Of a stretch of DNA of 64,000 nucleotides, positions 39,432 to 49,121 are shown in pieces. Location: the IMG/VR virus record IMGVR_UViG_3300043137_000281; one strand, given 5' to 3'. The translations under genes and the position numbers were made by a program. The first letter of the stretch is position 1; every line of letters begins with the position of its first letter. The notes beneath the pieces were generated by a model. It made no database searches. It was not told the origin of the DNA and was given only the letters and a program-made list of their open reading frames with translations. This stretch comes from a virus.

Positions 39432-40172
39432 ATGTCGAAGTTGGTTTTTCAAACAGAATTGGAGGGCATGTATTTGCCCTCCAAAATATGGGTTTATAAT
39501 GACTTCTTAGACGAAGATACTAGAATATGTATCAATAACTATATTAAACATAGAACTAGTGGCAAATGGAAACAAAATTTAAATGAGCAAAGAAGTTTTG
39601 TTTTCCAGGGTCAAAATATAAAGTTATGCGGTCTTTCTGGATATAGAGCATATCAAATTTTGTGGTCGCTCTCACAAATTCCAGAGTATTTTCACCAGAC
39701 AAACGATACTATTGCCGACTGGGCAGAACAACATCTCAATAAAAACTTAGACCCTGTCTGTCGATTGATGATACAATCTGCTAGAAATGCAGCGCCGTTC
39801 AACGGTGACAAAAATTGGATTCCGTTTAGAGGCATCATCAATATTTTGCCGGTGGGAGAAAATCTAGAGGCGCATCTTGATGCGGACGACCAAGTAATCG
39901 ACACAGAAAAAAGCCAAGTTCATAGCTTTACATATTATGCTAATGGTGCTAATGGCGGAGATTTTTGGGCGCACGATAAGTATGATGAAGAGTTTAGATA
40001 TTCACCGAGTGCAAATGATGCGTTGATTATTCAAGGTACCGGGACATATCATGGCGTCTCTAAGGTCAAAGAAAATACCAGACTTTGTATGACAATTAGG
40101 TTTATCCATGCAGATGACTTGATTCTTCATGGTCATCCAGATAAGTTCTTATGGAAACCTAATCTAGAATAA
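39432..40172 (+). CDS. 2OG-Fe(II) oxygenase family protein
   Basis: AHLDADD (HxD) ... GTGTYHGVS (distal His). Tightly linked to the protease gene, with a 2-nt gap. Confidence 0.45.
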   Translation: MSKLVFQTELEGMYLPSKIWVYNDFLDEDTRICINNYIKHRTSGKWKQNLNEQRSFVFQGQNIKLCGLSGYRAYQILWSLSQIPEYFHQTNDTIADWAEQHLNKNLDPVCRLMIQSARNAAPFNGDKNWIPFRGIINILPVGENLEAHLDADDQVIDTEKSQVHSFTYYANGANGGDFWAHDKYDEEFRYSPSANDALIIQGTGTYHGVSKVKENTRLCMTIRFIHADDLILHGHPDKFLWKPNLE

Positions 40173-40701
40173 CACCCTTGCAATGAATGGTATATCTTTT
40201 TTCTCTAGCGTTAGTTGTAACGGGTGTAACTAGATGTGGCTCTACCTTTGATTGGTTAATTAGACCACATGAGTTATACTCAGGAAGAAACACTTTGTAT
40301 TCTTCATCATCTAGATATACATACAGTCCACCATCGTCTGGTCGCCAATCTTTATTCAAATAGAACGTTGCATTGAACATATATCTACTGTCATCGTGGA
40401 TTCCAGTGGCTGCACCAACATCCCAAATCTGATAAAAAGCAGTGAAATCATATCCTCTAATGTTCGAATCGATTTCAATTAGTTTCTGGCGAATAAGATT
40501 TTTGATATCACCATTGATGTATTTAAATGTAATCTCACCTTGCTCATGAGGATATTCAGTAGTATTTTTTGTACCCGATGCTTCTGCAACATTGACTTTG
40601 GCTCGTGACCATGTGTGCCATCCACCTTTAAGCAATTCATTATCAAGGTCTGTGTGGATTCTTTCCAACTCATCTTCTGAGAAAACATCGGTTATAAACA
40701 T
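40159..40701 (-). CDS. 2OG-Fe(II) oxygenase family protein
   Basis: TGIHDDSRY (HxD) ... RYTIHCKGV (distal His, basic residue). Confidence 0.45.
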   Translation of the reverse strand: MFITDVFSEDELERIHTDLDNELLKGGWHTWSRAKVNVAEASGTKNTTEYPHEQGEITFKYINGDIKNLIRQKLIEIDSNIRGYDFTAFYQIWDVGAATGIHDDSRYMFNATFYLNKDWRPDDGGLYVYLDDEEYKVFLPEYNSCGLINQSKVEPHLVTPVTTNAREKRYTIHCKGVILD

Positions 40702-41290: not shown

Positions 41291-41366
41291 TGGTACGGAG
41301 TGACGGGCTCGAACCGCCGACATTCTGCGTGTAAAGCAGACGCTCTACCATCTGAGCTAACCCCGC
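41291..41366 (-). tRNA. tRNA-Val(TAC)
   Basis: Cloverleaf folds by hand: acceptor GCGGGGT/ACTCCGT (2 GU), D GCTC/GAGC, anticodon loop TTTACAC, T-loop TTCGAGC, encoded CCA. Confidence 0.75.
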
Positions 41367-41797
41367 ACAACATGGTCCGCTGCATGGGTAGCAGCGAAGG
41401 AATCTGGTTTGATTTTAGCATCAATACCCAGAGTTCCCTTAACGTAGCCGAGTGCTTCTTTGACGGCTACATTACTCTTATACTTTGGATTTGGGTTAAT
41501 GTCAAGATGAATTTCCAACTTTCTTTCACCCAAAACGTCAAGTATAGATGTTGCGGCTTCAATAGCAAAACCAACTTCTGAAATTAGACGTTGACGTAAG
41601 TTACCGAAGTCACGCATTTCAATGTTTTTATGAAAAATTCTAGCGCCGTGCTTAGAATCCATGTGAAGAATAATTACGGTTGAATACTTGGCGTACCAAT
41701 GACCGTCTTTACGCTTGAATCTAATCGAATCGGCACCGATATAAACAGATGACGCTTCACTAGAATTTAGAATTGCTTCTCTTGCTTCATCATACAT
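41357..41797 (-). CDS. Hypothetical protein (possibly RNase H-like fold)
   Basis: 146 aa ORF with IYIGADS...HLDINPNPKYKSN motifs. Confidence 0.3.
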   Translation of the reverse strand: MYDEAREAILNSSEASSVYIGADSIRFKRKDGHWYAKYSTVIILHMDSKHGARIFHKNIEMRDFGNLRQRLISEVGFAIEAATSILDVLGERKLEIHLDINPNPKYKSNVAVKEALGYVKGTLGIDAKIKPDSFAATHAADHVVRG

Positions 41798-41815
41798 ACG
41801 TCACCTGTTCATAAA

Positions 41816-41889
41816 TGGCGAAGGTGCCGGGATTCGAACCCGGAACGACGGTTTTGGAGACCGTAATGATACCATTTCACTACACCGAC
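41816..41889 (-). tRNA. tRNA-Trp(CCA)-like, atypical acceptor stem
   Basis: Perfect anticodon arm ACGGT-CTCCAAA-ACCGT and T-arm CCGGG-TTCGAAT-CCCGG, encoded CCA. The acceptor stem has two mismatches (U2-U71, C3-U70). Confidence 0.45.
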
Positions 41890-41895
41890 AAAAAC

Positions 41896-41973
41896 TGGTC
41901 GGGAATGTAGGATTCGAACCTACGACCCCCTGCTCCCAAAGCAGGTGCGCTACCCAGACTGCGCTAATCCCCG
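41896..41973 (-). tRNA. tRNA-Pro(TGG)
   Basis: Acceptor CGGGGAT/ATTCCCG, anticodon loop TTTGGGA, T-loop TTCGAAT, encoded CCA. Confidence 0.75.
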
Positions 41974-41983
41974 AATTCTTTAA

Positions 41984-42166
41984 TTACTTTGGCTGTTCAT
42001 TTTCACCAAGCGCAGGTTCCGCAGCTGGTTCCACTGCATTTGCTGTAGCAAGTGCTTCATCGGCTGCTGGGCCCGCTGCTTCTATAACGGATGGTGCTTC
42101 TGTGCTAGGCGCACATGCCGCAGTAAGTGCTACAACTGCCGCTGCCATAAAAGTCTTGATGTTCAT
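41984..42166 (-). CDS. Small Ala/Pro-rich lipoprotein
   Basis: MNIKTFMAAAVVALTAAC lipobox. Strong RBS AAAGGAAAA. Sits between tRNA genes. Confidence 0.45.
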   Translation of the reverse strand: MNIKTFMAAAVVALTAACAPSTEAPSVIEAAGPAADEALATANAVEPAAEPALGENEQPK

Positions 42167-42187
42167 ATTATTTTCCTTTGTTGAAAA

Positions 42188-42268
42188 TGGAGCCCCCGAC
42201 AGGACTCAAACCTGCATGTAATTCAGTTAACCTTTCCACTGGTTCGTAGCCAGAGGGTATACGGAGGC
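42188..42268 (-). tRNA. tRNA-like gene of uncertain identity (81 nt)
   Basis: Perfect 7-bp acceptor GCCTCCG/CGGGGGC, T-arm GCAGG-TTTGAGT-CCTGT and encoded CCA. The interior does not fold into standard D and anticodon arms. A clean CTGG-CTACGAA-CCAG hairpin (ACG) sits too close to the 5' end. Confidence 0.35.
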
Positions 42269-42270
42269 AT

Positions 42271-42344
42271 TGGAGCGGATAGTGAGACTCAAACTCACCT
42301 CTTTAGCTTGGAAGGCTAAGGCACAATCTCTATACCATACCCGC
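42271..42344 (-). tRNA. tRNA-Gly(TCC)
   Basis: Acceptor GCGGGTA/TATCCGC. Anticodon arm TTAGC-CTTCCAA-GCTAA, near-identical to E. coli tRNA-Gly(UCC). T-loop TTTGAGT (C56 replaced by U), encoded CCA. Confidence 0.7.
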
Positions 42345-42360
42345 ATAATATTATTTATAG

Positions 42361-42437
42361 TGGCGACTCGGACGGGACTTGAACCCGCAACTTCCAGCGT
42401 GACAGGCTGGTGCTCTAACCAGTTGAACTACCGAGCC
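42361..42437 (-). tRNA. tRNA-Asp(GTC)
   Basis: Acceptor GGCTCGG/CCGAGTC, anticodon loop CTGTCAC, T-loop TTCAAGT, encoded CCA. Confidence 0.75.
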
Positions 42438-42461
42438 AAATAGAGTATGCATATATAACAT

Positions 42462-43085
42462 ATGCATTTTGATCCTAGACAGATTAAACATCTAACTGAT
42501 TCAGTCGATGATGTTCTAATTAAGACCTTATTGAATACTGCCAAAGAAGCAAAGTCTTCTCAAGCCACAGTGGGAAGTGTGGTTGATGACAGCTATGTTG
42601 CTGTTCACAATACTGACATCTGCACAGCCAACTTTGTAGATTATAACAACTTTGCTGATAATGTTGAACTACTTGTAATGCGCTGCAAGGAGCTTGTAGA
42701 GCATCACTATAGCGTGGAATGTGTGTCACATTCCATTGACTTTCTTCACTATCCAGACGGAACTCACTATTGGCCGCATATAGATGGTCAATACATAGAC
42801 GGTACATTTGTTCGCAGAAGTGATATCAATCGTGACATAACTTGCGTAGTGTATCTAAATGATGACTATCAAGGTGGCGAAGTATATTTTCCATTCTTTG
42901 ACATTGAGAAGAAGCCTAATACGGGCGACATATTAATGTATCCTGGTAGTTGGCAATATCTTCACGGCGTCAAGAAAGTAGAAGGTGTTCGTTACGCAAT
43001 AGTAGTTTGGTTCCATACAAGTCCTGAAATGTATCAGGATGAGGAAATTAAACATCATCACATAATGAGAACACTCACTCATTAA
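42462..43085 (+). CDS. Prolyl 4-hydroxylase-like 2OG-Fe(II) oxygenase
   Basis: HYWPHIDG (HxD), ...YLHGVKKVEGVRYAIVVWF (distal His and Arg). Plus strand, inside the tRNA island. Confidence 0.6.
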   Translation: MHFDPRQIKHLTDSVDDVLIKTLLNTAKEAKSSQATVGSVVDDSYVAVHNTDICTANFVDYNNFADNVELLVMRCKELVEHHYSVECVSHSIDFLHYPDGTHYWPHIDGQYIDGTFVRRSDINRDITCVVYLNDDYQGGEVYFPFFDIEKKPNTGDILMYPGSWQYLHGVKKVEGVRYAIVVWFHTSPEMYQDEEIKHHHIMRTLTH

Positions 43086-43170
43086 TGGTGGGCCAGTGAG
43101 GTATCGATCCTCCCCCGGTAACGGACGAGATTTACAGTCTCGCTGCTAGAGCCACTAGCTTTACCGACCC
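43086..43170 (-). tRNA. tRNA-Tyr(GTA), long variable arm
   Basis: Acceptor GGGTCGG/CTGGCCC, anticodon arm CGAGA-CTGTAAA-TCTCG, type-II variable arm, encoded CCA. The T-loop is unusual (ATCGATA). Confidence 0.6.
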
Positions 43171-43175
43171 AAAAA

Positions 43176-43269
43176 TGGTAGTCCCTGGTGGATTCGAACC
43201 ACCGACGCTCTCTAATCTGGAGACGATGCTGGATATAAGCCAGGTGTTTTACCGCTAAACTAAGGGACC
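43176..43269 (-). tRNA. Atypical 94-nt tRNA-like gene (anticodon loop CUUAUAU = UAU?, extra 24-nt variable hairpin)
   Basis: Good acceptor GGTCCCT/AGGGACT, D GTTT/AAAC, T-arm GGTGG-TTCGAAT-CCACC, encoded CCA. The anticodon stem has a C27-C43 mismatch. The variable region contains a TCTC-CAGATTA-GAGA hairpin. Confidence 0.45.
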
Positions 43270-43273
43270 GAAA

Positions 43274-43349
43274 CTGGTGCTCCCGAACGGATTCGAACCG
43301 CTGACACTCGGTTCTTCAAACCGATGCTCTACCAACTGAGCTACAGGAG
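43274..43349 (-). tRNA. tRNA-Phe(GAA)
   Basis: Acceptor GCTCCTG/CGGGAGC, anticodon loop TTGAAGA, T-loop TTCGAAT, encoded CCA. Confidence 0.8.
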
Positions 43350-43356
43350 CATATAA

Positions 43357-43439
43357 TGGTGCGGGTAGAGGGACTCGAACCCCCACGGTTGCCCGTCTGG
43401 ACCTAAACCAGGTGCGTCTACCAATTTCGCCATACCCGC
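43357..43439 (-). tRNA. tRNA-Leu(TAG), type II
   Basis: Acceptor GCGGGTA/TACCCGC, anticodon loop TTTAGGT, long variable arm, T-loop TTCGAGT, encoded CCA. Confidence 0.7.
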
Positions 43440-43440
43440 A

Positions 43441-43527
43441 AACTTGAGCGACCACCTAAGTGTGCCTTGAACGAATACGTCCGGACGCTTCGTTCTTCCT
43501 TTTCAGGTTCAGCATAGGTGGTCTAAC
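43441..43527 (-). ncRNA. Strongly structured roughly 85-nt spacer element between tRNA-Leu and tRNA-Ala (candidate small RNA or processing hairpin)
   Basis: Nested inverted repeats GACCACCTA...TAGGTGGTC, AACGAA...TTCGTT and central ACGTCCGGACGT palindrome. No T-arm motif. Confidence 0.3.
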
Positions 43528-43528
43528 T

Positions 43529-43604
43529 TGGTGGAGAATAACGGGATCGAACCGTTGACATCCAGCTTGCAAAGCTGGCGCTCTACCATCTGAGCTAATT
43601 CCCC
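43529..43604 (-). tRNA. tRNA-Ala(TGC)
   Basis: Acceptor GGGGAAT/ATTCTCC, anticodon arm CCAGC-TTTGCAA-GCTGG, T-arm AACGG-TTCGATC-CCGTT, encoded CCA. Confidence 0.8.
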
Positions 43605-43608
43605 AAAA

Positions 43609-43728
43609 CTTATTAGAAGAACACACAAGATATAGAATAGTGTTGGCGCACTACCGTTCGCTACTCGCCAAAGTAACCGAACCGCCGATTGGGCTAAAAC
43701 CGTCTAATGTGTTCATCTAATAAGTCTT
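43609..43728 (-). repeat. About 120-bp structured element with roughly 17-bp terminal inverted repeats, copy 1, fused to the 5' end of tRNA-Ala (candidate small stable RNA or processing element)
   Basis: CTTATTAGAAGAACACACAAG...CTAATGTGTTCATCTAATAAGTCTT. The termini are reverse-complementary. About 85% identical to copy 2. Confidence 0.5.
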
Positions 43729-44065
43729 TGTGAAGCATGAGATTACTGCTTCTAATTGAGTGCCTTTGGTCATTACCGAGTCCCTTGCGAGGATCGTTCT
43801 ACCGTTATCCACTAAAGTCCTTTCGGATTCTCTAGTATCACTCAGTGCTGCCTTTTTTGAGGTCTGGCGTTTGACCTATCATGCTACGCTATTCGTCCCT
43901 CAATCTTCCGTTTGCCTTGCGAGCAATTCGGTTCCGCTAAGAACCTACGTCTTCAATCCGAACAATCACATCATCCTTGCGGGAATCCGTGAACCCAATT
44001 CACTTCCGTGTCAGGTATTAAGCACCTTTCACATAGCACTGGAGCAGACTTTCGCTTTTGTTATA

Positions 44066-44140
44066 CAAACCAGGAATTGAACCTAGATCGACAGTTTAAG
44101 AGACTGTTGTCTTACCATTAGACAATTTGCGAACCTACCA
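44066..44140 (-). pseudogene. tRNA-like pseudogene/fragment inside the non-coding island (intact D, anticodon CTT-loop and T arms, but no pairable acceptor stem)
   Basis: Minus-strand GTCT-AATGGTA-AGAC, ACAGT-CTCTTAA-ACTGT and CTAGG-TTCAATT-CCTGG arms. The flanking 7-mers are not complementary. Confidence 0.35.
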
Positions 44141-44751
44141 AGAAGTGCTGCTCCAGCAGATCCATATCTTGTTAGATACGGAATACTACACTCCTCATGT
44201 CTTTTACCTTGCGGGCTACTCAACGGCACTTCTAGTTTCCCCTCATCGGTTCTACTATTGTGCTACCGCTTTGCCTTTCCTTGCTAGGTCAGACTTAGCG
44301 ATTACCCATTAGTTTTCAGCATTCGCGAGTTTGGTTCGATACAGCTAGACCACCACAGTCTATTAGAACTCACCGACTGGCTCTGTTCGTATCCTTTCGG
44401 ACTTATATCACTCACTTACTGCCTACCGCCATTCTACTGACGGGAGATGCTTTCGGTAATGCCGAGACATCTCTAACTTGGGCTTGCATAGATGAACCAT
44501 TACTGGCGCAGTTACGTAGGAGTCCCTGCTTTGGCCGCATTACTGCGGTTATTCTAACGAGGCTATGCCCCCAATTCTTATTCTCTACTTATACACCACT
44601 TTATGGTGTTTGTAAATACTTTTTTGAAAAATATTTACGAGAAACTAGGCCCGGGATATTTTACAAGCATACGGGCGGCGCTTGCCGTTTTGTTTACAAC
44701 GTATAATCTGTTAGGGTATATACGTTGGTTCAGCAGACGGTACTGCTTATC

Positions 44752-44826
44752 TGGTTGCAGGAGTCGGACTTGAACCGACGACCTTCTGGTTATGAGCCAG
44801 ACGAGCTACCACTGCTCCACCCTGCG
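44752..44826 (-). tRNA. Initiator tRNA-fMet(CAT)
   Basis: About 85% identical in layout to E. coli tRNA-fMet, including the C1:A72 mismatch and CTCATAA loop: CGCAGGGTGGAGCAGTGGTAGCTCGTCTGGCTCATAACCAGAAGGTCGTCGGTTCAAGTCCGACTCCTGCAACCA. Confidence 0.8.
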
Positions 44827-44832
44827 TCAAAC

Positions 44833-44907
44833 TGGCTCCCTAAGATGGATTCGAACCACCGACCAATTGATTAACAGTCAACTGCGCTACCGCTGCGCCA
44901 TTAGGGA
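44833..44907 (-). tRNA. tRNA-Asn(GTT)
   Basis: Acceptor TCCCTAA/TTAGGGA, D GCGC/GCGC, anticodon loop CTGTTAA, T-loop TTCGAAT, encoded CCA. Confidence 0.75.
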
Positions 44908-44996
44908 ATATAAGCACCTCACGTCTTGGTGCTTACGTCAAACATTCTCGACAGACTCCATACACCATACGGTATGCGAGTAGTTTGACTATAAAA

Positions 44997-45072
<76 letters not shown>

Positions 45073-45076
45073 AAGA

Positions 45077-45201
45077 CTTATTAGAAGAACACACAAGATA
45101 TAAAAAGGTGTTGGCGCACCAATCGTTCGCTATCCGCCAAGATAACCGATCCGCCACCTCAATAGGCTAAGATCGTCTAATGTATTCATCTAATAAGTCT
45201 T
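45077..45201 (-). repeat. About 120-bp terminal-inverted-repeat element, copy 2, fused to the 5' end of tRNA-Thr
   Basis: Same termini and internal GTTGGCGCAC...CGCCAA hairpin as copy 1. Begins 4 nt from the tRNA-Thr 5' end, as copy 1 does from tRNA-Ala. Confidence 0.5.
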
Positions 45202-45240
45202 GTGTGGGGAGCCGAAGCTCCCCGACACAAACTTTTTTCT
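45202..45240 (+). terminator. Stem-loop followed by a T-run (factor-independent terminator-like) immediately beside TIR element copy 2
   Basis: TTGTGTGGGGAGC-CGAA-GCTCCCCGACACAA then ACTTTTTT on the plus strand. The orientation relative to the minus-strand tRNA operon suggests it may instead be an RNA processing hairpin. Confidence 0.3.
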
Positions 45241-45261
45241 AACGATGTCAAAGAACAGAAC

Positions 45262-45296
45262 TAATATATATACTGTTTTACCGAAAATGTCAAGAA
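45262..45296 (-). promoter_or_regulatory. Sigma70-type promoter of the tRNA-His ... tRNA-fMet operon (minus strand)
   Basis: rc reads TTGACA-TTTTCGGTAAAACAGTA-TATATA, followed by the conserved GTTCTGTTCTTTGACATCGTTAG that is shared with the promoter at 48562-48600. Confidence 0.5.
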
Positions 45297-45322
45297 CTTT
45301 TTTAATTATTTTCGAAAAACTT

Positions 45323-45398
45323 TGGGGTGAATGAAGGGGATCGAACCCTCGACATGCGGCACCACAAGCCACCGCTCTACCACTGAGCTACACTCACC
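45323..45398 (-). tRNA. tRNA-His(GTG) with encoded G-1
   Basis: Extra 5' G pairing with the C73 discriminator (bacterial His identity). Acceptor GTGAGTG/CATTCAC, anticodon loop TTGTGGT, T-loop TTCGATC, encoded CCA. Confidence 0.75.
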
Positions 45399-45561
45399 AT
45401 AATACCGATGAAGGTTCAAACGATGTATGCATCCATCTCCCTACTCGACGTATTCTCCCACTCGGTAAAACATGGGCGCTTACTTTTGGCGGAGTTGCCA
45501 ATCGCGCAAAACAGAATACCAACTGCGATCGACCATTACCGTATTCTCGACTCCATAAACT

Positions 45562-45648
45562 TGGCGGAAGGTGTGGGAGTCGAACCCACTCAACCATTTC
45601 TGGTTGACGCATTAGCAGTGCGTTGCATTACCGTCCTGCCCACCTTCC
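45562..45648 (-). tRNA. tRNA-Ser(GCT), type II
   Basis: Acceptor GGAAGGT/ACCTTCC, anticodon arm ACGCA-CTGCTAA-TGCGT, variable arm CAACCA/TGGTTG, T-arm GTGGG-TTCGACT-CCCAC, encoded CCA. Confidence 0.75.
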
Positions 45649-45655
45649 GTTTATA

Positions 45656-46453
45656 TTACTTGACGTTCACAATACCCTTGAAGTCATAAGGAACGATAAT
45701 CGTAGAAACCTTACCTTCTTTGACTGCCTCTGCAATCGTTACAAGAGCGGTTGCTTCCATGTATTTGGTAGCGCCAGCGTTAGCATTCAATGCAGCAATA
45801 CGTTCTGCTTCCAACTTCGCGGTACGAACTTCAACCAGCTTCTGCTTTTCAGCATTTTGTGCCTGCACCAGTTGGTTAGCAGACGCTACGATGTTGGCAG
45901 CTGGCTTGACCTGACGAACGAGAACCTGTGACACATCAATCTGGCCGTCAAGTTTTTCGGCAACGAGGCTGGCAATAATTTCCTGACGAATCAACACTTC
46001 CATCTCGGCGCGATTATCAGCCATCTTCAAAGATTCGTAACGACGAGCAACCTTGTATGCAGCGTTACGGCCGAGCTGGCGAATGTAGTTATACATCAAC
46101 AGCGTATCACCTTCTTCGGTATCAGCGTGGAAACCACGGTTCTTTTCTACATAGATTTCAGCCGCGCTAGTCGGATTGATTGAATAAATCACTGACATAT
46201 CGAAGTCGGCAACAGTTGAGTTGTCGCTGGCAAGAGGAGTCAAGTCAACGATATCAACCTGAACATCCTTCGTCGGGAAAGTAAGAACTTCACCAAAAAT
46301 AGTCTGATTGATAGAACCTGGCTGTAGTTCAGTGGTTTCAATGGTCTTGTCGAACGAACGACGGACACCAACTTCACCTGTTTCAATTCGGGTACAGGCA
46401 GCGGTACCAACCAGAAGAAGCGACAGGGCGGAAATCTTAGCAACACGATTCAT
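45656..46453 (-). CDS. SPFH/Band-7 (prohibitin/HflK-like) lipoprotein
   Basis: Lipobox LLLVGTAAC. Band-7 core followed by an Ala/Glu-rich coiled-coil tail (QAQNAEKQKLVEVRTAKLEAERIAALNANAG). RBS AAGGAA before MNRVAK. Confidence 0.6.
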   Translation of the reverse strand: MNRVAKISALSLLLVGTAACTRIETGEVGVRRSFDKTIETTELQPGSINQTIFGEVLTFPTKDVQVDIVDLTPLASDNSTVADFDMSVIYSINPTSAAEIYVEKNRGFHADTEEGDTLLMYNYIRQLGRNAAYKVARRYESLKMADNRAEMEVLIRQEIIASLVAEKLDGQIDVSQVLVRQVKPAANIVASANQLVQAQNAEKQKLVEVRTAKLEAERIAALNANAGATKYMEATALVTIAEAVKEGKVSTIIVPYDFKGIVNVK

Positions 46454-46467
46454 AATAATTTTATTCC

Positions 46468-46645
46468 TTAGAAAATCAAAACAATTGCCGTAACAACGAC
46501 CATCGCTGCTACAGAACACACTATACTATAGGCGAACAACTTTGTCAAGCCTAATTTTTCAGATTTAGTCATTTTTCTGAACATATCAATACCGACAATA
46601 AATCCAAACAGGATAAACATGAAGGCAACAATCATTTTACTCATA
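46468..46645 (-). CDS. Small membrane protein (58 aa)
   Basis: Two TM helices. The upper part of ORF 46468..46890 overlaps tRNAs and is discarded. Confidence 0.35.
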
Positions 46646-46652
46646 ACAAGAC

Positions 46653-46727
46653 TTTCTGTGTTGGTAGCCCGAACGGGTTTCGATCCCGCTTCTCTGCCTT
46701 GAAAGGGCAGTGTCCTAGCCACTAGAC
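46653..46727 (-). tRNA. tRNA-Glu(TTC)
   Basis: Close to E. coli tRNA-Glu: GGCCCGGTCGTCTAGTGGCTAGGACACTGCCCTTTCAAGGCAG... The T-loop is ATCGAAA (T54 replaced by A). Encoded CCA. Confidence 0.7.
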
Positions 46728-46730
46728 GAC

Positions 46731-46805
46731 CGGGCCATTTGGAGCGGGGGAGCGGATTCGAACCGCCGACCGTCTCGTTGGCAACGAGATGCTCTACCAC
46801 TGAGC
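46731..46805 (-). tRNA. tRNA-Gly(GCC)
   Basis: Acceptor GCGGGTG/CCCCCGC (one U-C mismatch), anticodon arm TCTCG-TTGCCAA-CGAGA, T-loop TTCGAAT, encoded CCA. Confidence 0.7.
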
Positions 46806-46809
46806 TACA

Positions 46810-46887
46810 CCCGCATTGTGGAGTCACGAGCCGGATTCGAACCGGCGGCTTTACGGATTTGCAATCCGTTGCATTGGACCACTCTGC
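46810..46887 (-). tRNA. tRNA-Cys(GCA)
   Basis: Acceptor GTCACGA/TCGTGAC, anticodon arm ACGGA-TTGCAAA-TCCGT, T-arm GCCGG-TTCGAAT-CCGGC, encoded CCA. Confidence 0.7.
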
Positions 46888-46888
46888 C

Positions 46889-46960
46889 ATCGTGACATGG
46901 TACCAGCAGGTGGTAACGCTCCACCCGAACCAACCTTATGAGAGTCGGTCGAACACTTGT
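46889..46960 (-). tRNA. Aberrant 72-nt tRNA-like gene with CAT anticodon loop (possible tRNA-Ile2/Met variant or pseudogene)
   Basis: Acceptor ACCAGTA/TGCTGGT pairs (A1-U72). Anticodon arm CGACT-CTCATAA-GGTTG. The D-arm is truncated (GAAC-AAGT-GTTC) and the T-loop AGCGTTA is non-canonical. Encoded CCA. Confidence 0.35.
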
Positions 46961-46961
46961 T

Positions 46962-47037
46962 CTACTGGTGTGGTGCGAGTGACAGGGTTCGAACCTGTGA
47001 CCTAACGATTATCGGTCGTTTGCTCTACCAACTGAGC
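46962..47037 (-). tRNA. tRNA-Ile(GAT)
   Basis: Acceptor GCGAGTG/CACTCGC, anticodon arm AACGA-CCGATAA-TCGTT, T-loop TTCGAAC, encoded CCA. Confidence 0.8.
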
Positions 47038-47042
47038 TACAC

Positions 47043-47118
47043 TCGCAAATATGGTGGACACTCTGGGGTTCGAACCCAGGACCTACAGGTTAAAAGCCCG
47101 TTGCTCTACCTACTGAGC
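47043..47118 (-). tRNA. tRNA-Lys(TTT)
   Basis: Acceptor GGACACT/AGTGTCC, anticodon loop CTTTTAA, T-loop TTCGAAC, encoded CCA. Confidence 0.8.
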
Positions 47119-47124
47119 TAAGTG

Positions 47125-47200
47125 TCCGTGAAATGGTAGACGATGTAGGATTCGAACCTACGACCTAAGGATTAAGAGTCCCGCGCTCTACCGACTGAGC
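47125..47200 (-). tRNA. tRNA-Lys(CTT)
   Basis: Acceptor GGACGAT/ATCGTCT, anticodon loop CTCTTAA, T-arm GTAGG-TTCGAAT-CCTAC, encoded CCA. Confidence 0.7.
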
Positions 47201-47217
47201 TAATCGTCCATTAAACT

Positions 47218-47418
47218 TTAACCGATGTAGATCCGATGACGTTCGGAATCTACAGATGCACCAACTACACGATGTTCTATGTAGTAGGCATCGATAAACT
47301 GATCACCGTCACGAGTATACACACCGTAGGCAGTCCGAGCTTCTTCCTCAGAAGCATACACACCTAACAACAGCGAACCGTGGAGATCAAACTCACCTAA
47401 CAACGCAAAAACTTCCAT
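47218..47418 (-). CDS. Hypothetical small protein
   Basis: 66 aa after a promoter-leader cassette. Confidence 0.4.
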   Translation of the reverse strand: MEVFALLGEFDLHGSLLLGVYASEEEARTAYGVYTRDGDQFIDAYYIEHRVVGASVDSERHRIYIG

Positions 47419-47483
47419 AACGAATCACTTTCTCTCTGACTATATTCTCATAATAACAGATTCGCAGAGAATGTCAAGCATTA
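47419..47483 (-). promoter_or_regulatory. Promoter-leader cassette, copy 15
   Basis: Contains aatgtcaagcatt ... aacagattcgcagag ... gaatcactttctctctgactat. Confidence 0.55.
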
Positions 47484-47487
47484 TATT

Positions 47488-47562
47488 TGGTGCGCCCGGC
47501 AGGACTCGAACCCGCAACCAAACCGTTATGAGCGGTCGGCTCTACCATTGAGCTACAGGCGC
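47488..47562 (-). tRNA. tRNA-Met(CAT), elongator-type (or tRNA-Ile2 if lysidinylated)
   Basis: Acceptor GCGCCTG/CGGGCGC with a normal G1-C72. Anticodon arm GACCG-CTCATAA-CGGTT, T-loop TTCGAGT, encoded CCA. Confidence 0.75.
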
Positions 47563-47568
47563 AAACTG

Positions 47569-47955
47569 TTATTCAGCAAGCCACTGCTTGAGGGCGCCAA
47601 ACTTTATGTCGAAGCACCACTCTAGGCGCTCGGCACCATAAAACTTGTATGCATCGGCCTCATCTTCGGCATCTGCAATGATTTCTACGGCGCGAACCTT
47701 GTCGCAATTACAAAGCAGCATGGTTTCTGCCACGCGCTCCTTGAACTTCTCAAGGTTAGCCGTCTGACGAATGGCATCTTCGTCAATCTGCACCGAAAGT
47801 TTCTCAACCAGATTTTTGAAATCTGCATCAAAATTCTCGATAGACGCAAAAGTAATGCCACGAGGGCGAAAACCATACACATCCTTGTGTAGGTCAGAAT
47901 AAATGTCGCCATCTCGACTATCGGTGGCGACATTTATTTCAGCAAGCGTAAGCAT
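47569..47955 (-). CDS. Hypothetical protein
   Basis: 128 aa after a promoter-leader cassette. Confidence 0.45.
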   Translation of the reverse strand: MLTLAEINVATDSRDGDIYSDLHKDVYGFRPRGITFASIENFDADFKNLVEKLSVQIDEDAIRQTANLEKFKERVAETMLLCNCDKVRAVEIIADAEDEADAYKFYGAERLEWCFDIKFGALKQWLAE

Positions 47956-48023
47956 TTCGAATCACCTTCTCATCAACTACTCTTTCTTTATAGCTGATTC
48001 GCAGGTAAATGTCAAGCGATAAA
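47956..48023 (-). promoter_or_regulatory. Promoter-leader cassette, copy 16
   Basis: rc: ATCGCTTGACATTTACCTGCGAATCAGCTATAAAGAAAGAGTAGTTGATGAGAAGGTGATTCGAAATG. Confidence 0.55.
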
Positions 48024-48025
48024 TT

Positions 48026-48262
48026 TTATACGCCAATCGCATTTCGATATGTGTCAAGAATCATATCTTCTTCTTGACGGATATGCGCTTCCTTTTTACG
48101 TAGGCGAATAATCTGGCGAGTTGCCTTAGCATCGTAACCCTCACCCTTCAATTCAGAATAGACTTCCTTGCGGTCAATCTTCTTTGCATCAATTTCGGCT
48201 TCGATAGTCTCAATACGTTCAATAAAAAGACGATACTTATCAATTGCAATAATGTCACTCAT
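48026..48262 (-). CDS. DUF2312/GapR-like small nucleoid-associated protein
   Basis: IDKYRLFIERIETIEAEID...KEVYSELKGEGYDAKATRQIIRLRKKEAHIRQEEDMILDTYRNAIG matches the UPF0335/GapR pattern (IERLEeE...dVYaEAKG.GfD.KalR.i.rlRK....R.E.e.iLd.Y..AlG), a family typical of alphaproteobacteria and their phages. Confidence 0.6.
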   Translation of the reverse strand: MSDIIAIDKYRLFIERIETIEAEIDAKKIDRKEVYSELKGEGYDAKATRQIIRLRKKEAHIRQEEDMILDTYRNAIGV

Positions 48263-48281
48263 TATATAACCTTTCTAGAAA

Positions 48282-48357
48282 TGGATGCCCCGTCAGGTCT
48301 CGAACCTGAACTCTTCGGAATCAAAATCCGACGTGTTGCCAATTACACCACGGGGCA
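48282..48357 (-). tRNA. tRNA-Gln(TTG)
   Basis: U1-A72 acceptor TGCCCCG/CGGGGCA, anticodon arm TCGGA-TTTTGAT-TCCGA, T-loop TTCGAGA, encoded CCA. Confidence 0.75.
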
Positions 48358-48358
48358 T

Positions 48359-48434
48359 TGGTAGGGATGATGGGACTCGAACCCACACTGGAAGGATTTT
48401 AAGTCCTCTGTCTCTGCCATTGGACTACATCCCC
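48359..48434 (-). tRNA. Class-I (short variable loop) tRNA with UAA anticodon (nominally Leu, structurally atypical)
   Basis: Acceptor GGGGATG/CATCCCT, anticodon arm GAGGA-CTTAAAA-TCCTT, 5-nt variable loop (not type II), T-loop TTCGAGT, encoded CCA. Confidence 0.5.
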
Positions 48435-48438
48435 AAAC

Positions 48439-48526
48439 TGGAGGAAGCGGTGGGATTCGAACCCACGGTACCTTGCGGTACGACAGTTTTCAAGACTGTA
48501 GGTTTCAACCACTCACCCACGCTTCC
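48439..48526 (-). tRNA. tRNA-Ser(TGA), type II
   Basis: Acceptor GGAAGCG/CGCTTCC, anticodon arm ACAGT-CTTGAAA-ACTGT, variable arm GTACC/GGTAC, T-loop TTCGAAT, encoded CCA. Confidence 0.75.
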
Positions 48527-48561
48527 TATAAAAAACTTCTAACAATGTCAAAGAACAGAAT

Positions 48562-48600
48562 ACTATATATAACAGTTTTTGACATTTATCAAGAGTTTTT
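48562..48600 (-). promoter_or_regulatory. Sigma70-type promoter of the tRNA-Ser/Leu/Gln block (minus strand), a paralog of the 45262-45296 promoter
   Basis: rc reads TTGATA-AATGTCAAAAACTGTTA-TATATA, then GTATTCTGTTCTTTGACATTGTTAG. Confidence 0.5.
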
Positions 48601-49121
48601 TAAAAATTATCTGGTTTATATGGGTCGTAAAATCTTCCCCATAACCAACCAGATGGTAGAATGAACGTGACTGGGTCTACCAGATGTGTTTTACCCGACG
48701 GCTCTACACACCACGCTCTTCTACGTTGTCTCGCTCTCATCGCTATCAGATTGCGAGTTTCCCATGTTTGGCGTCTGCCATACATAGGATTATTTTCGTT
48801 TCTCCTAGTTCCTCGCATTTTGCGACGAATTTTGGCCTTTGTTTCTTCTTTCAAACCACCCCAATTAGGGTTGTTGCTTCCACTTAACGCTAGAGCAATC
48901 TTTCGTTTATGCTCTGTTGTTAAAGCCGGTATCTTCTTTCTACTGACTTTATCACGAAATGTCAAGCCTTTTCCTAAAGAATTTACTTTATCTCTGATAT
49001 ATTCGATATTAGAGTTTTGAAGTAGAAGTTCTCTCGGCTTAGGTACCTGTTCAGGATTTTTGACTAACCAGATTTCGCTCTTGTGCTTAAAAAGGAAGTA
49101 TCTCACGTATACCCCTATCAA
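48600..49121 (-). CDS. NUMOD3-motif homing-endonuclease-like protein (possibly degenerate)
   Basis: Two NUMOD3-like DNA-binding repeats (TEHKRKIALALSGSNNPNWGG and KAKIRRKMRGTRRNENNPMYG) as in T4 Seg/I-Tev proteins. Non-ATG start (TTG/GTG). Located at the edge of the tRNA island. Confidence 0.45.
   Translation of the reverse strand: MIGVYVRYFLFKHKSEIWLVKNPEQVPKPRELLLQNSNIEYIRDKVNSLGKGLTFRDKVSRKKIPALTTEHKRKIALALSGSNNPNWGGLKEETKAKIRRKMRGTRRNENNPMYGRRQTWETRNLIAMRARQRRRAWCVEPSGKTHLVDPVTFILPSGWLWGRFYDPYKPDNF

Follow-up and report, generated by a model that had tools for sequence, protein, structure and literature searches.

The window analysed here is a 64,000-nucleotide (nt) stretch of viral DNA, IMG/VR record IMGVR_UViG_3300043137_000281, and this report concerns its segment 41291-48526, a dense array of transfer RNA (tRNA) genes together with the large non-coding RNA GOLLD. 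In the 41.3-48.5 kb region, an uncultured tailed phage with a Gram-negative host appears to keep its island of genes for tRNAs and non-coding RNA. The best explanation of this island, and in our judgement a probable one, is that those of its genes that deviate from the cloverleaf are working tRNAs belonging to phage-specific structural families. The island and GOLLD are of known kinds; what seems to be new is the concentration in one island of several non-canonical tRNA architectures that are conserved and phage-specific, and of which ARAGORN and Rfam miss two or three. Comparative data were drawn from 80 related IMG/VR loci (designated by L-numbers; 73-99% amino-acid identity to the SPFH protein of the window), many of which have the same tRNA order, and from pattern scans of IMG/VR.

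Gene content of the island and detection by tRNA finders

ARAGORN called 25 tRNA genes in the island, all on the minus strand, a default call serving as threshold, and the same 25 loci were matched by the Rfam tRNA model RF00005 with 48-73 bits (gathering score 29 bits). These loci comprise 21 of the 22 genes which an earlier, sequence-only reading of the DNA had listed as standard cloverleaves, three that it had flagged as odd (Trp, UAU and Leu-UAA) and a tRNA-like element embedded in GOLLD. The remaining gene, tRNA-Tyr, is itself non-canonical and was obtained as a 26th call at the relaxed ARAGORN setting -ps90 only. All five genes described in that reading as deviant are present; the coordinates it gave were exact for the ACG gene and 9 nt off for the CAU gene (46898-46969, not 46889-46960). 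A covariance scan, which it had named as a possible refutation, scored the Trp, UAU and Leu-UAA genes as ordinary tRNAs (54, 58 and 59 bits) and left the ACG and CAU genes unscored. Relaxed ARAGORN runs, also proposed there, recovered Tyr, but the ACG and CAU genes stayed uncalled at every setting tried. When introns and very low thresholds were allowed (-i -ps80) only spurious calls were added, and both genes were still missed. With the Rfam tRNA model at E<=1, no match was found for the Tyr, ACG or CAU gene. Although outside the standard models, these three look like tRNAs in having an acceptor, CCA, an anticodon loop and a T-arm.

A scan of the intergenic gaps of the island for T-arm-like hairpins gave no further hidden tRNA candidates. 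The total is 27 free-standing tRNA genes and a 28th tRNA-like domain embedded in GOLLD. The number of 27 is as first read, and the minus-strand orientation and encoded CCA first given for the 22 standard genes are present in 27/27; GOLLD, its embedded CUU domain and the non-canonical fold of Tyr had been overlooked. The free-standing genes jointly cover all 20 amino acids, are spaced by 1-8 nt inside the clusters and are interspersed with small open reading frames (ORFs). Departures from the textbook cloverleaf, or from conserved tertiary pairs, are seen in eight or more of the 27.

A putative tRNA-Arg with a re-wired D-arm

The 5' half of the ACG gene consists of a 7-base-pair (bp) acceptor strand, U8 A9, a UACCC linker and an anticodon arm with the loop CUACGAA. 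The 3' half continues with GGAAAGGUUAACUGAAUUACAU, which contains a D-loop-like motif (G18 A19 A20), followed by a T-arm with the loop UUUGAGU, U73 and CCA. Conservation is 99% in L002 and L003 and ~75% in L004, L045, L060 and L078, with compensatory changes in the acceptor and anticodon stems. In L020, L033 and L050 a canonical 77-nt tRNA-Arg(ACG) is found instead, with acceptor and T-arm as in the ACG gene; because these parts are shared, the odd form is best regarded as a derived tRNA-Arg.

A pattern scan of IMG/VR yielded at least 116 stretches of this type, corresponding to at least 67 distinct sequences of 79-95 nt. Across 67 sequences the acceptor was paired in 100% of cells, with double-sided changes at 7/7 pairs, the anticodon stem in 95% (5/5 positions changed on both sides) and the T-stem in 99% (3/5). 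U8, A9 and the A that follows G-G or G-A in the D-loop motif are invariant (67/67). From the 5' end, the family layout reads acceptor, U8-A9, N-C-C-N-N and anticodon arm (CUACGAA), then x-N-N-A-A-G-G-U-(U)-A-A-C-U-G-G/A-A, 3-8 nt (or an extra hairpin), T-arm, acceptor and N73-CCA. No D-arm can be drawn; a D-stem formed by N10-C11-C12-C13 and the bases 3' of the D-loop motif was rejected, as the two strands have no complementarity.

Two subfamilies, U-A-U-C-C...G-G-U-A-A-C and U-A-U-A-C-C...G-G-U-U-A-A-C, differ by a correlated insertion of A and U, which suggests an extra A:U pair in an N-C-C/G-G-U helix enclosing the anticodon arm. Moreover, covariation (C:G 33, G:C 6) connects the linker base beside the anticodon stem with the base two positions beyond this stem. 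The enclosing helix and this covariation together point to a hairpin of about ten stacked layers, which by our count would match the length of the normal stack of D-stem and anticodon stem. The motif A-A-C-U-G-G-A resembles D-loop positions 14-20 and sits 3' of the anticodon arm. In the lineage of the window G19 has changed to A and C56 of the T-loop to U, and over the 67 distinct sequences the 19:56 pair is G:C in 63 and A:U in 4. Positions 19 and 56 also covary (Fisher p = 4e-25) in a set of 1961 distinct tRNAs that ARAGORN called in the fetched loci. Because they do so both in the family and in this larger set, we interpret the motif as a D-loop that has been relocated and still docks on the T-loop. 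The alternative in which C-C pairs with G-G in AACUGG was ranked second, since that G covaries with T-loop position 56.

A20 in the D-loop is the main identity base for arginyl-tRNA synthetase (ArgRS), and C35 in the anticodon is an identity element of tRNA-Arg. We take the invariant A after G-G or G-A to be A20, the ArgRS identity position; the ACG anticodon was fixed by the search pattern, so that C35 is not independent. The genomic distribution was also analysed. Nearly all ACG-type copies (120/126) have a called tRNA no more than 500 nt away, and a canonical Arg(ACG) co-occurs at only 3/126 loci. In the window, Arg is the sole amino acid left uncovered by the other 26 free-standing genes of the island, and 61% of the Arg codons are CGU, CGC or CGA. 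A scan of prokaryotic genomes totalling 596 Gb gave 24 matches to the pattern, comprising 6 true ACG-type copies and 18 chance matches, versus more than 100 IMG/VR stretches; the form appears nearly confined to viral DNA. One prokaryotic copy lies within a 17-tRNA array of Bradyrhizobium sp. BR13661, and Rhizobium phage RHph_I1_18 carries an unannotated ACG-type gene (MN988519:15119-15199) between tRNA-Ile and tRNA-Phe.

The ACG gene would be the tRNA-Arg of the island, reading CGU, CGC and CGA. In place of the D-arm, the short N-C-C/G-G-U helix would lengthen the anticodon stem, and the D-loop motif A-A-C-U-G18-G/A19-A20, now positioned after the hairpin, would still reach the T-loop. D-arm-lacking mitochondrial tRNAs, such as metazoan tRNA-Ser(AGY), likewise have no D-arm and a lengthened anticodon helix, a resemblance rather than kinship. 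Unlike these, the ACG gene is a bacterial-type phage gene with a normal T-arm, an encoded CCA and a relocated D-loop motif (A14-A15...G18-G19-A20) that covaries with position 56.

A tRNA(UAU) with a GAU-bearing extra arm

The UAU gene is, as described in the sequence-only reading, 94 nt long with a UAU anticodon loop and a 24-nt extra hairpin. It is retained in L004, L045 and L050, and among relatives the stem of the arm covaries (UCUC/GAGA, CGGC/GCCG, CCC/GGG) while the loop stays constant. For the family alignment, tRNA(UAU) genes of 85 nt or longer were collected from the fetched loci, giving 57 distinct well-formed sequences; only ARAGORN-confirmed genes were kept, because the pattern has 14 specified bases and many chance matches are expected. 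The family has at least two body types, and A73 is found in 56/57. Every arm loop has G-A-U at loop positions 3-5, and GAU was also present in members found independently of the pattern (loops UAGAUUG, UAGAUGA, CCGAUUA and CAGAUGG). The major tRNA-Ile has GAU as its anticodon, and in the 7-nt arm loop this triplet occupies the anticodon-equivalent place. The arm may be a recognition handle, possibly for isoleucyl-tRNA synthetase (IleRS) or a modification enzyme, its geometry being uncertain.

The gene combines a UAU anticodon with A37 and A73, and its acceptor and D-arm resemble tRNA-Ile2 when compared by eye, unaligned. AUA decoding is its most likely role, as had been entertained before; the gene would be an AUA decoder with A73 and, by eye, an Ile2-type body. 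AUA accounts for 17% of Ile codons in ordinary phage genes. A cultured example of the type is the 91-nt 'tRNA-Ile' of Levilactobacillus phage ENFP1 (OM293948:94360-94450).

Three known systems invite comparison. The tRNA-Ile(UAU) of the Mycoplasma mobile type are reportedly of ordinary class I form and recognised by an IleRS that has evolved together with them. In Mycoplasma mobile and other bacteria without TilS, AUA is read by UAU and there is no lysidine-bearing tRNA-Ile2 (PMC3575796); the phage UAU tRNA differs in carrying an extra arm of 20-26 nt. The nematode nev-tRNA-Ile(UAU) has a long variable arm and is charged with Leu (PMC3333845), and it shares anticodon and long arm with the phage family (PMC3333845, PMC4300185). 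However, nev-tRNAs are eukaryotic, nematode-specific and Leu-charged, whereas the phage family has the GAU arm loop and, by eye, a bacterial Ile2-type body. Finally, allo-tRNAs with an 8/4 (predominant) or 9/3 acceptor branch have long variable arms and non-Ser/Leu anticodons, UAU being among the commonest, and some of them sit in phage tRNA clusters (PMC5389517). The UAU gene shares the long arm and the anticodon with allo-tRNAs, but differs by its 7/5 acceptor branch, A73 and a sequence-conserved arm loop.

A compact tRNA(CAU)

The 72-nt CAU gene is separated by one base from tRNA-Ile(GAU) upstream and by one base from tRNA-Cys downstream. In its 5' half, a 7-bp acceptor (A1-U72) is followed, in the absence of nucleotides 8/9, by a 4-bp D-stem with an AAGU tetraloop. 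The 3' half comprises a 7-8 bp anticodon stem with the loop CUCAUAA, a variable region of 2-3 nt, the T-loop AGCGUUA, A73 and CCA. When this cloverleaf was imposed on 10 distinct homologues, 100% of cells were paired, compared with 15-49% for slid controls, and five pairs, distributed over the acceptor, D- and T-stems, had changed on both sides. RNAalifold returned the identical cloverleaf for the homologues.

In a looser scan, CAU tRNAs with the T-loop AGCGUUA proved common in viral contigs (97 distinct sequences), 68 of them well formed, and AAGU is the commonest D-loop among them. Position 1:72 is unpaired, and hence initiator-like, in 38/68 well-formed sequences; the copy in the window has A1-U72. 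Ile, Thr and Val tRNAs that have no G-G in the D-loop also carry the T-loop AGCGU(U/A)A, and because of this recurrence in other isotypes the T-loop looks like an alternative elbow module. The CAU gene would accordingly form a compact cloverleaf whose elbow is built from the AAGU D-loop and the AGCGUUA T-loop. It may accept Met, fMet or, after lysidine formation, Ile.

Short Leu, Trp and Tyr genes and variant T-loops

A class I body with a UAA anticodon had been noted at 48359-48434, and is confirmed: the tRNA-Leu(UAA) lacks the long variable arm of class II, while A73 and a Leu-type D-arm are present. The short form is kept at 76-78 nt in 10 distinct relatives, and L068 has an 85-nt class II Leu(UAA) with the same acceptor. 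In sampled viral contigs we found 97 distinct short Leu tRNAs (UAA, UAG, GAG and CAA), all with A73 (97/97). A73 is the discriminator of bacterial leucyl-tRNA synthetase (LeuRS), an enzyme that is not known to need the long variable arm, and for this reason the short tRNA-Leu(UAA) should still be charged with Leu. UUA decoding, already suggested in the sequence-only reading, is its most likely role.

The two acceptor mismatches reported for tRNA-Trp(CCA) were also seen. The pattern G1-C72 / U2.U71 / Y3.U70 recurs in 16 distinct phage Trp tRNAs, in one of them on an unrelated stem. The fold of the Tyr gene combines an 8-bp acceptor with a 4-bp T-stem, and further has a 5-bp D-stem with a 5-nt loop, a 6-bp anticodon stem, a 3-bp variable arm and the T-loop AUCGAUA. 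This variant is kept in 15 distinct sequences with compensatory changes; the 8th acceptor pair (U8:A65) is invariant in all 15, so that covariation is silent on the 8/4 branch. Like allo-tRNAs (PMC5389517), the Tyr gene can be drawn as 8/4, with an 8th pair that is invariant.

The unusual T-loops are TTTGAGT in Gly-UCC and the ACG gene, ATCGAAA in Glu and AGCGTTA in the CAU gene, as originally listed, and ATCGATA in Tyr. In tRNA-Gly(UCC), A19:U56 takes the place of G19:C56. As A19 pairs with U56, in keeping with the 19:56 covariation described above, U56 T-loops are compensated. The AUCGAAA loop was found in 20 distinct phage tRNAs, and T-loops with A54 (AUCGAAA, AUCGAUA, AUCGUUA) are frequent in sampled phage tRNAs. 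None of these oddities of the Leu, Trp and Tyr genes or of the T-loops marks a pseudogene.

GOLLD RNA and other non-coding elements

GOLLD lies between tRNA-fMet and tRNA-Ala, downstream of tRNA-fMet. Its conserved 3' domain matches the Rfam model RF02032 over the full length (gathering score 150 bits), and orthologous matches of 178-188 bits were obtained in L002, L004 and L024. The adjoining ~385 nt are 72-99% conserved in L001-L004 and L024 and are taken as the variable 5' half, which would bring the whole RNA to ~850 nt. The embedded tRNA-like domain is situated in the linker between the first hairpin of GOLLD and the pseudoknotted conserved core. Its two terminal acceptor pairs are mismatched, leaving the acceptor end open, and in L024 a domain with a UCU loop occupies the place of the CUU domain in the window.

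GOLLD is encoded in phages near tRNA islands, phage tRNAs are sometimes located in its linker, and one proposed role is the encapsulation or exposure of tRNAs (PMC12286853). A further hallmark of GOLLD is a 14-mer RNA cage, which the RNA of the window may also form. The RNA described here agrees with known GOLLD in its full-length match, its phage origin, its position in a tRNA island downstream of a Met-type tRNA, its linker tRNA and its variable 5' half. Nothing essential differs; the particular features are the absence of CCA from the embedded domain and a ~21-bp long-stem element after the 3' end.

This long-stem element is present in two copies of ~130 nt with 85% identity, one directly 5' of tRNA-Ala and the other directly 5' of tRNA-Thr. 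A stem of ~21 bp, interrupted by one mismatch, closes each copy and is formed in copy 1 by AAGACUUAUUAGAUGAACACA / UGUGUUCUUCUAAUAAGU(U/C)UU. Both copies are much more stably folded than shuffled sequences (z about -6). After GOLLD in L002, L004 and L024 the termini of the element are conserved and the interior is variable, and a U-run follows it in L004 and L024. The elements had no Rfam match. They could be RNase III processing sites or leaky terminators. A further long inverted repeat, GACCACCUA...UAGGUGGUC, occupies the 89-nt spacer between tRNA-Ala and tRNA-Leu(UAG) (43440-43528, minus strand).

A candidate GOLLD promoter, TTTACA-17-TATAAG (44616-44588, minus strand), was read by eye and not called by the promoter scan. 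Promoter-like modules were seen at ~48590-48530, ~48015-47985, 47477-47450, 46548-46520 and ~45300-45240. The modules at 45240-45300 and 48530-48590 (minus strand) are paralogous, consisting of TTGA(C/T)A, a spacer, TATATA and the leader UUCUGUUCUUUGACAUYGUUAGAA, and they head two tRNA transcription units. The 27 free-standing tRNA genes would be carried by several promoter-driven minus-strand units and processed by RNase P and 3' nucleases of the host.

In relatives without GOLLD the tRNA island instead ends with a manA RNA of 61-66 bits (L020:4416-4585, L033:10044-10212, L060:12780-12949). A permuted (alpha-type) tmRNA stands beside tRNAs in L045:13829-14266.

Ordinary tRNA genes of the island

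All features are compiled in Table 1. Both features which had been singled out as hallmarks, C1 opposite A72 in the initiator tRNA and the encoded G-1 of tRNA-His (45398, facing C73), are present; the initiator tRNA and the G-1 tRNA-His are ordinary bacterial-type features and not unusual. The D-stem of tRNA-fMet is GAGC/GCUC, hence A11:U24, and its anticodon stem has two of the three consecutive G:C pairs (29-31:39-41), 29:41 being U:A.

Table 1. Coordinates of the tRNA genes and non-coding RNA elements in the island (MFE, minimum free energy).
Feature	Position	Strand	Support
tRNA-Val(UAC), canonical, CCA encoded	41291..41366	-	ARAGORN; Rfam 64 bits
tRNA-Trp(CCA), acceptor mismatches U2.U71 and C3.U70	41816..41889	-	ARAGORN; Rfam 54 bits
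tRNA-Pro(UGG)	41896..41973	-	ARAGORN, Rfam
Non-canonical tRNA-Arg(ACG), 81 nt, D-arm absent	42188..42268	-	family covariation; no ARAGORN/Rfam call
tRNA-Gly(UCC), T-loop UUUGAGU (U56), D-loop without GG (UAGAGAUUG)	42271..42344	-	ARAGORN, Rfam
tRNA-Asp(GUC)	42361..42437	-	ARAGORN, Rfam
tRNA-Tyr(GUA), non-canonical	43086..43170	-	ARAGORN -ps90; no Rfam match at E<=1
tRNA(UAU), 94 nt, G1.U72, A73, 24-nt variable arm, 7-nt arm loop CAGAUUA	43176..43269	-	ARAGORN; Rfam 58 bits
tRNA-Phe(GAA)	43275..43350	-	ARAGORN, Rfam
tRNA-Leu(UAG), class II, short 11-nt variable region	43357..43439	-	ARAGORN, Rfam
tRNA-Ala(UGC)	43529..43604	-	ARAGORN, Rfam
Long-stem element copy 1, between GOLLD 3' end and tRNA-Ala	43605..43730	-	MFE -45.5 kcal/mol, z = -5.9
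GOLLD RNA, conserved 3' domain, RF02032	43734..44196	-	Rfam 194.1 bits, E 4e-53, model 1-416/416
tRNA-like domain in GOLLD linker, CUU anticodon loop, without CCA	44060..44133	-	ARAGORN; Rfam tRNA 53 bits
Putative GOLLD 5' domain, beyond Rfam model, 5' end approximate	44197..~44581	-	conservation in relatives
Initiator-type tRNA-fMet(CAU)	44752..44826	-	ARAGORN, Rfam; C1xA72, A11:U24, G30:C40, G31:C39
tRNA-Asn(GUU)	44833..44907	-	ARAGORN, Rfam
tRNA-Thr(UGU)	44997..45072	-	ARAGORN, Rfam
Long-stem element copy 2, directly 5' of tRNA-Thr	45073..45203	-	MFE -49.7 kcal/mol, z = -6.2
tRNA-His(GUG), encoded G-1 (45398) opposite C73	45323..45398	-	ARAGORN, sequence
tRNA-Ser(GCU), class II	45562..45648	-	ARAGORN, Rfam
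tRNA-Glu(UUC), T-loop AUCGAAA (A54)	46662..46736	-	ARAGORN, Rfam
tRNA-Gly(GCC)	46740..46814	-	ARAGORN, Rfam
tRNA-Cys(GCA)	46819..46896	-	ARAGORN, Rfam
Non-canonical tRNA(CAU), 72 nt	46898..46969	-	covariation test, RNAalifold; no ARAGORN/Rfam call
tRNA-Ile(GAU)	46971..47046	-	ARAGORN; Rfam 73 bits
tRNA-Lys(UUU)	47052..47127	-	ARAGORN, Rfam
tRNA-Lys(CUU)	47134..47209	-	ARAGORN, Rfam
tRNA(CAU), elongator Met or Ile2; C4:G69, C5:G68	47488..47562	-	ARAGORN, Rfam
tRNA-Gln(UUG)	48282..48357	-	ARAGORN, Rfam
tRNA-Leu(UAA), 76 nt, 5-nt variable loop, 3-bp Leu-type D-stem, 10-nt D-loop, A73	48359..48434	-	ARAGORN; Rfam 59 bits
tRNA-Ser(UGA), class II; first gene of the island, promoter-like module upstream	48439..48526	-	ARAGORN, Rfam

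Phage genome and relatives

According to PHROG and Pfam matches, phage-type proteins are encoded in the window (among them ribonucleotide reductase, a protease and PHROG families), and in or near the island an SPFH lipoprotein, an RNase H-like PF04308 protein and an outer-membrane beta-barrel protein are encoded. When the island was compared by megablast with 50,697 phage records, only tRNA-sized matches were obtained, and the window proteins are at most 45% identical to proteins of Vibrio, Ruegeria or Pseudomonas phages; these two comparisons revealed no close cultured relative. A 2OG-Fe(II) oxygenase gene lies mid-island on the opposite strand (42462-43085, plus strand), and a second 2OG-Fe(II) oxygenase ORF is found at 40159-40701 (minus strand). 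The island's first tRNA is directly preceded by an ORF with a NUMOD3 motif, probably a homing endonuclease (48600-49121, minus strand). Between tRNA clusters, 48026-48262 (minus strand) encodes a 78-amino-acid GapR-like DNA-binding protein (PF10073); the GapR family is typical of alphaproteobacteria and their phages, a weak hint at the host.

The island shares with phage and prophage tRNA clusters or arrays (T4- and T5-type phages; mycobacterial tRNA arrays) its dense same-strand genes covering most or all amino acids, the lytic-phage genome, the small ORFs and a homing endonuclease nearby. It differs from these by an unusually high share of non-canonical genes.

Suppressor-like tRNAs, another option raised in the sequence-only reading, find no support within the window and are ruled out there, as no CUA, UUA or UCA anticodon is present. 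Among the relatives, a CUA-anticodon tRNA (amber-suppressor type, 'Pyl' in ARAGORN) occurs at L024:7462-7536, L045:14344-14421 and L068:19101-19175, and some relatives may read TAG as sense. Four-base anticodons in 8-nt loops were called by ARAGORN in L330:2841-2914 (tatg; Rhizobium phage RHph_I1_18), where a tmRNA lies just upstream, and in the first tRNA of L061 (cgaa).

Discussion

The tRNA set of the island most likely sustains phage translation when host tRNAs are limiting, ill-matched or attacked, and on the explanation that we prefer the deviant genes contribute to it as working tRNAs. The failure of ARAGORN and Rfam on the ACG, CAU and Tyr genes, the mismatches or unusual loops of several deviant genes and the two acceptor mismatches in the ACG gene of relative L060 could be signs of decay, the ACG, CAU, Trp, UAU, Leu-UAA and Tyr loci then being pseudogenes or decaying duplicates. 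We regard this as highly improbable, given that each deviant type is conserved across many distinct sequences, from phage contigs both related and unrelated to the window, with its helices held by compensatory substitutions, and that the genes retain an encoded CCA and canonical 7-nt anticodon loops. In addition, the ACG type replaces the canonical Arg(ACG) and is rarely found beside it, and the Trp mismatch pattern recurs on an unrelated stem. The presence, conservation, covariation and distribution of the deviant genes and the failure of the detectors were observed directly. Where the sequence-only reading had left a choice between pseudogenes and functional oddities, conservation and compensatory helix changes decide for the latter. 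Functional genes need not be adaptors, and the aberrant ones could instead act as decoys or baits for host nucleases that target tRNAs or for tRNA-modifying enzymes, as regulatory tRNA mimics, or as cargo or partners of a GOLLD cage. They are neighbours of GOLLD, for which encapsulation or exposure of tRNAs has been proposed (PMC12286853), the embedded domain with its open acceptor and no CCA demonstrates that a non-decoding tRNA shape exists in the island, and the four CAU and UAU genes look redundant for decoding. Nevertheless, such a role is unlikely for the free-standing odd genes, which keep a 7-bp acceptor, the discriminator and CCA, a 7-nt anticodon loop, U33 and a purine at 37; the ACG gene, moreover, keeps A20, fills the sole amino-acid gap and substitutes for the canonical gene.

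A different question is whether the class II-shaped tRNA(UAU) receives Leu or Ser by virtue of its long arm and A73, which would leave AUA recoded or ambiguous, a proposal made for the nematode nev-tRNA-Ile(UAU) and the bacterial allo-tRNA(UAU). A73, the discriminator for bacterial LeuRS, is nearly universal in the family, but the sequence-conserved GAU loop of the arm is unlike the known arms of Ser or Leu tRNAs. By eye and unaligned, the acceptor and D-arm are nearer to tRNA-Ile2 than to the Leu genes of the island with their Leu-type D-arm, and reassignment of AUA would be costly in view of its share of Ile codons in ordinary phage genes. A long arm combined with UAU is what has been reported for the Leu-accepting nev-tRNAs (PMC3333845) and for 8/4 allo-tRNAs (PMC5389517); the UAU body, however, is 7/5 and not 8/4 or 9/3. 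Overall, we consider charging with Leu or Ser very unlikely.

Several points weigh against the view that the deviant genes are working tRNAs of the proposed structures. U73, which most members of the ACG family carry, is unusual for a bacterial tRNA-Arg. The ACG fold between acceptor and T-arm is not unique: for one subfamily RNAalifold predicts a U-C-C/G-G-A pairing, for the other A-C-C/G-G-U. The base that follows G-G-A, and not the U of G-G-U, is the one with which N10 covaries (36/51 paired, matched by 1 of 10,000 shuffles). The A19:U56 switch within this family represents a single lineage of 4 distinct sequences. Family alignments were gathered with exact sequence patterns, so that the conservation of the anticodon loop, AAGGU, AACUG, the GAU loop and AGCGUUA is partly built in. 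Single-sequence folding energies of the odd tRNAs are unexceptional (z = -0.8 to -2.2), and the three CAU genes of the island are not assignable to isotypes without isotype-specific models. Lastly, we infer the expression, the charging identity and the three-dimensional model of the deviant genes from sequence.

Neither a D-arm-less or re-wired phage tRNA nor a phage UAU tRNA with a long arm is described in the searchable literature, which is weak evidence, as most subscription-journal papers are outside its coverage; because of this incomplete coverage, the novelty of the re-wired tRNA-Arg and the GAU-arm tRNA(UAU) is provisional. Tentatively, and as a possibility in which we place less than half of our confidence, we propose that phage arrays hold at least two undescribed translation-competent architectures, a relocated-D-loop tRNA-Arg(ACG) and a GAU-arm tRNA-Ile(UAU). 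On this joint proposal, the stem strands of the former would extend the anticodon helix while the relocated D-loop also replaces the variable loop, and the GAU loop of the latter would offer IleRS or a wobble-modifying enzyme a determinant that is absent from the UAU anticodon.

tRNA finders define what counts as a tRNA, and here ARAGORN and Rfam miss two to three of 28, including the only tRNA-Arg. If other pipelines behave likewise, phage tRNA sets are undercounted, and arguments based on codon usage and host independence are biased. The window also adds a comparative example of GOLLD, in which orthologues are 72-99% identical and the embedded anticodon differs (CUU versus UCU). The GAU arm provides a testable idea for AUA decoding independent of lysidine synthesis by the host. 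Judging from the ACG family, a tRNA may retain the L-shape despite a re-wired D-arm, which bears on how tRNA shape is read by RNase P, ArgRS, TadA, EF-Tu and the ribosome, and the family would offer a natural scaffold for the design of orthogonal tRNAs.

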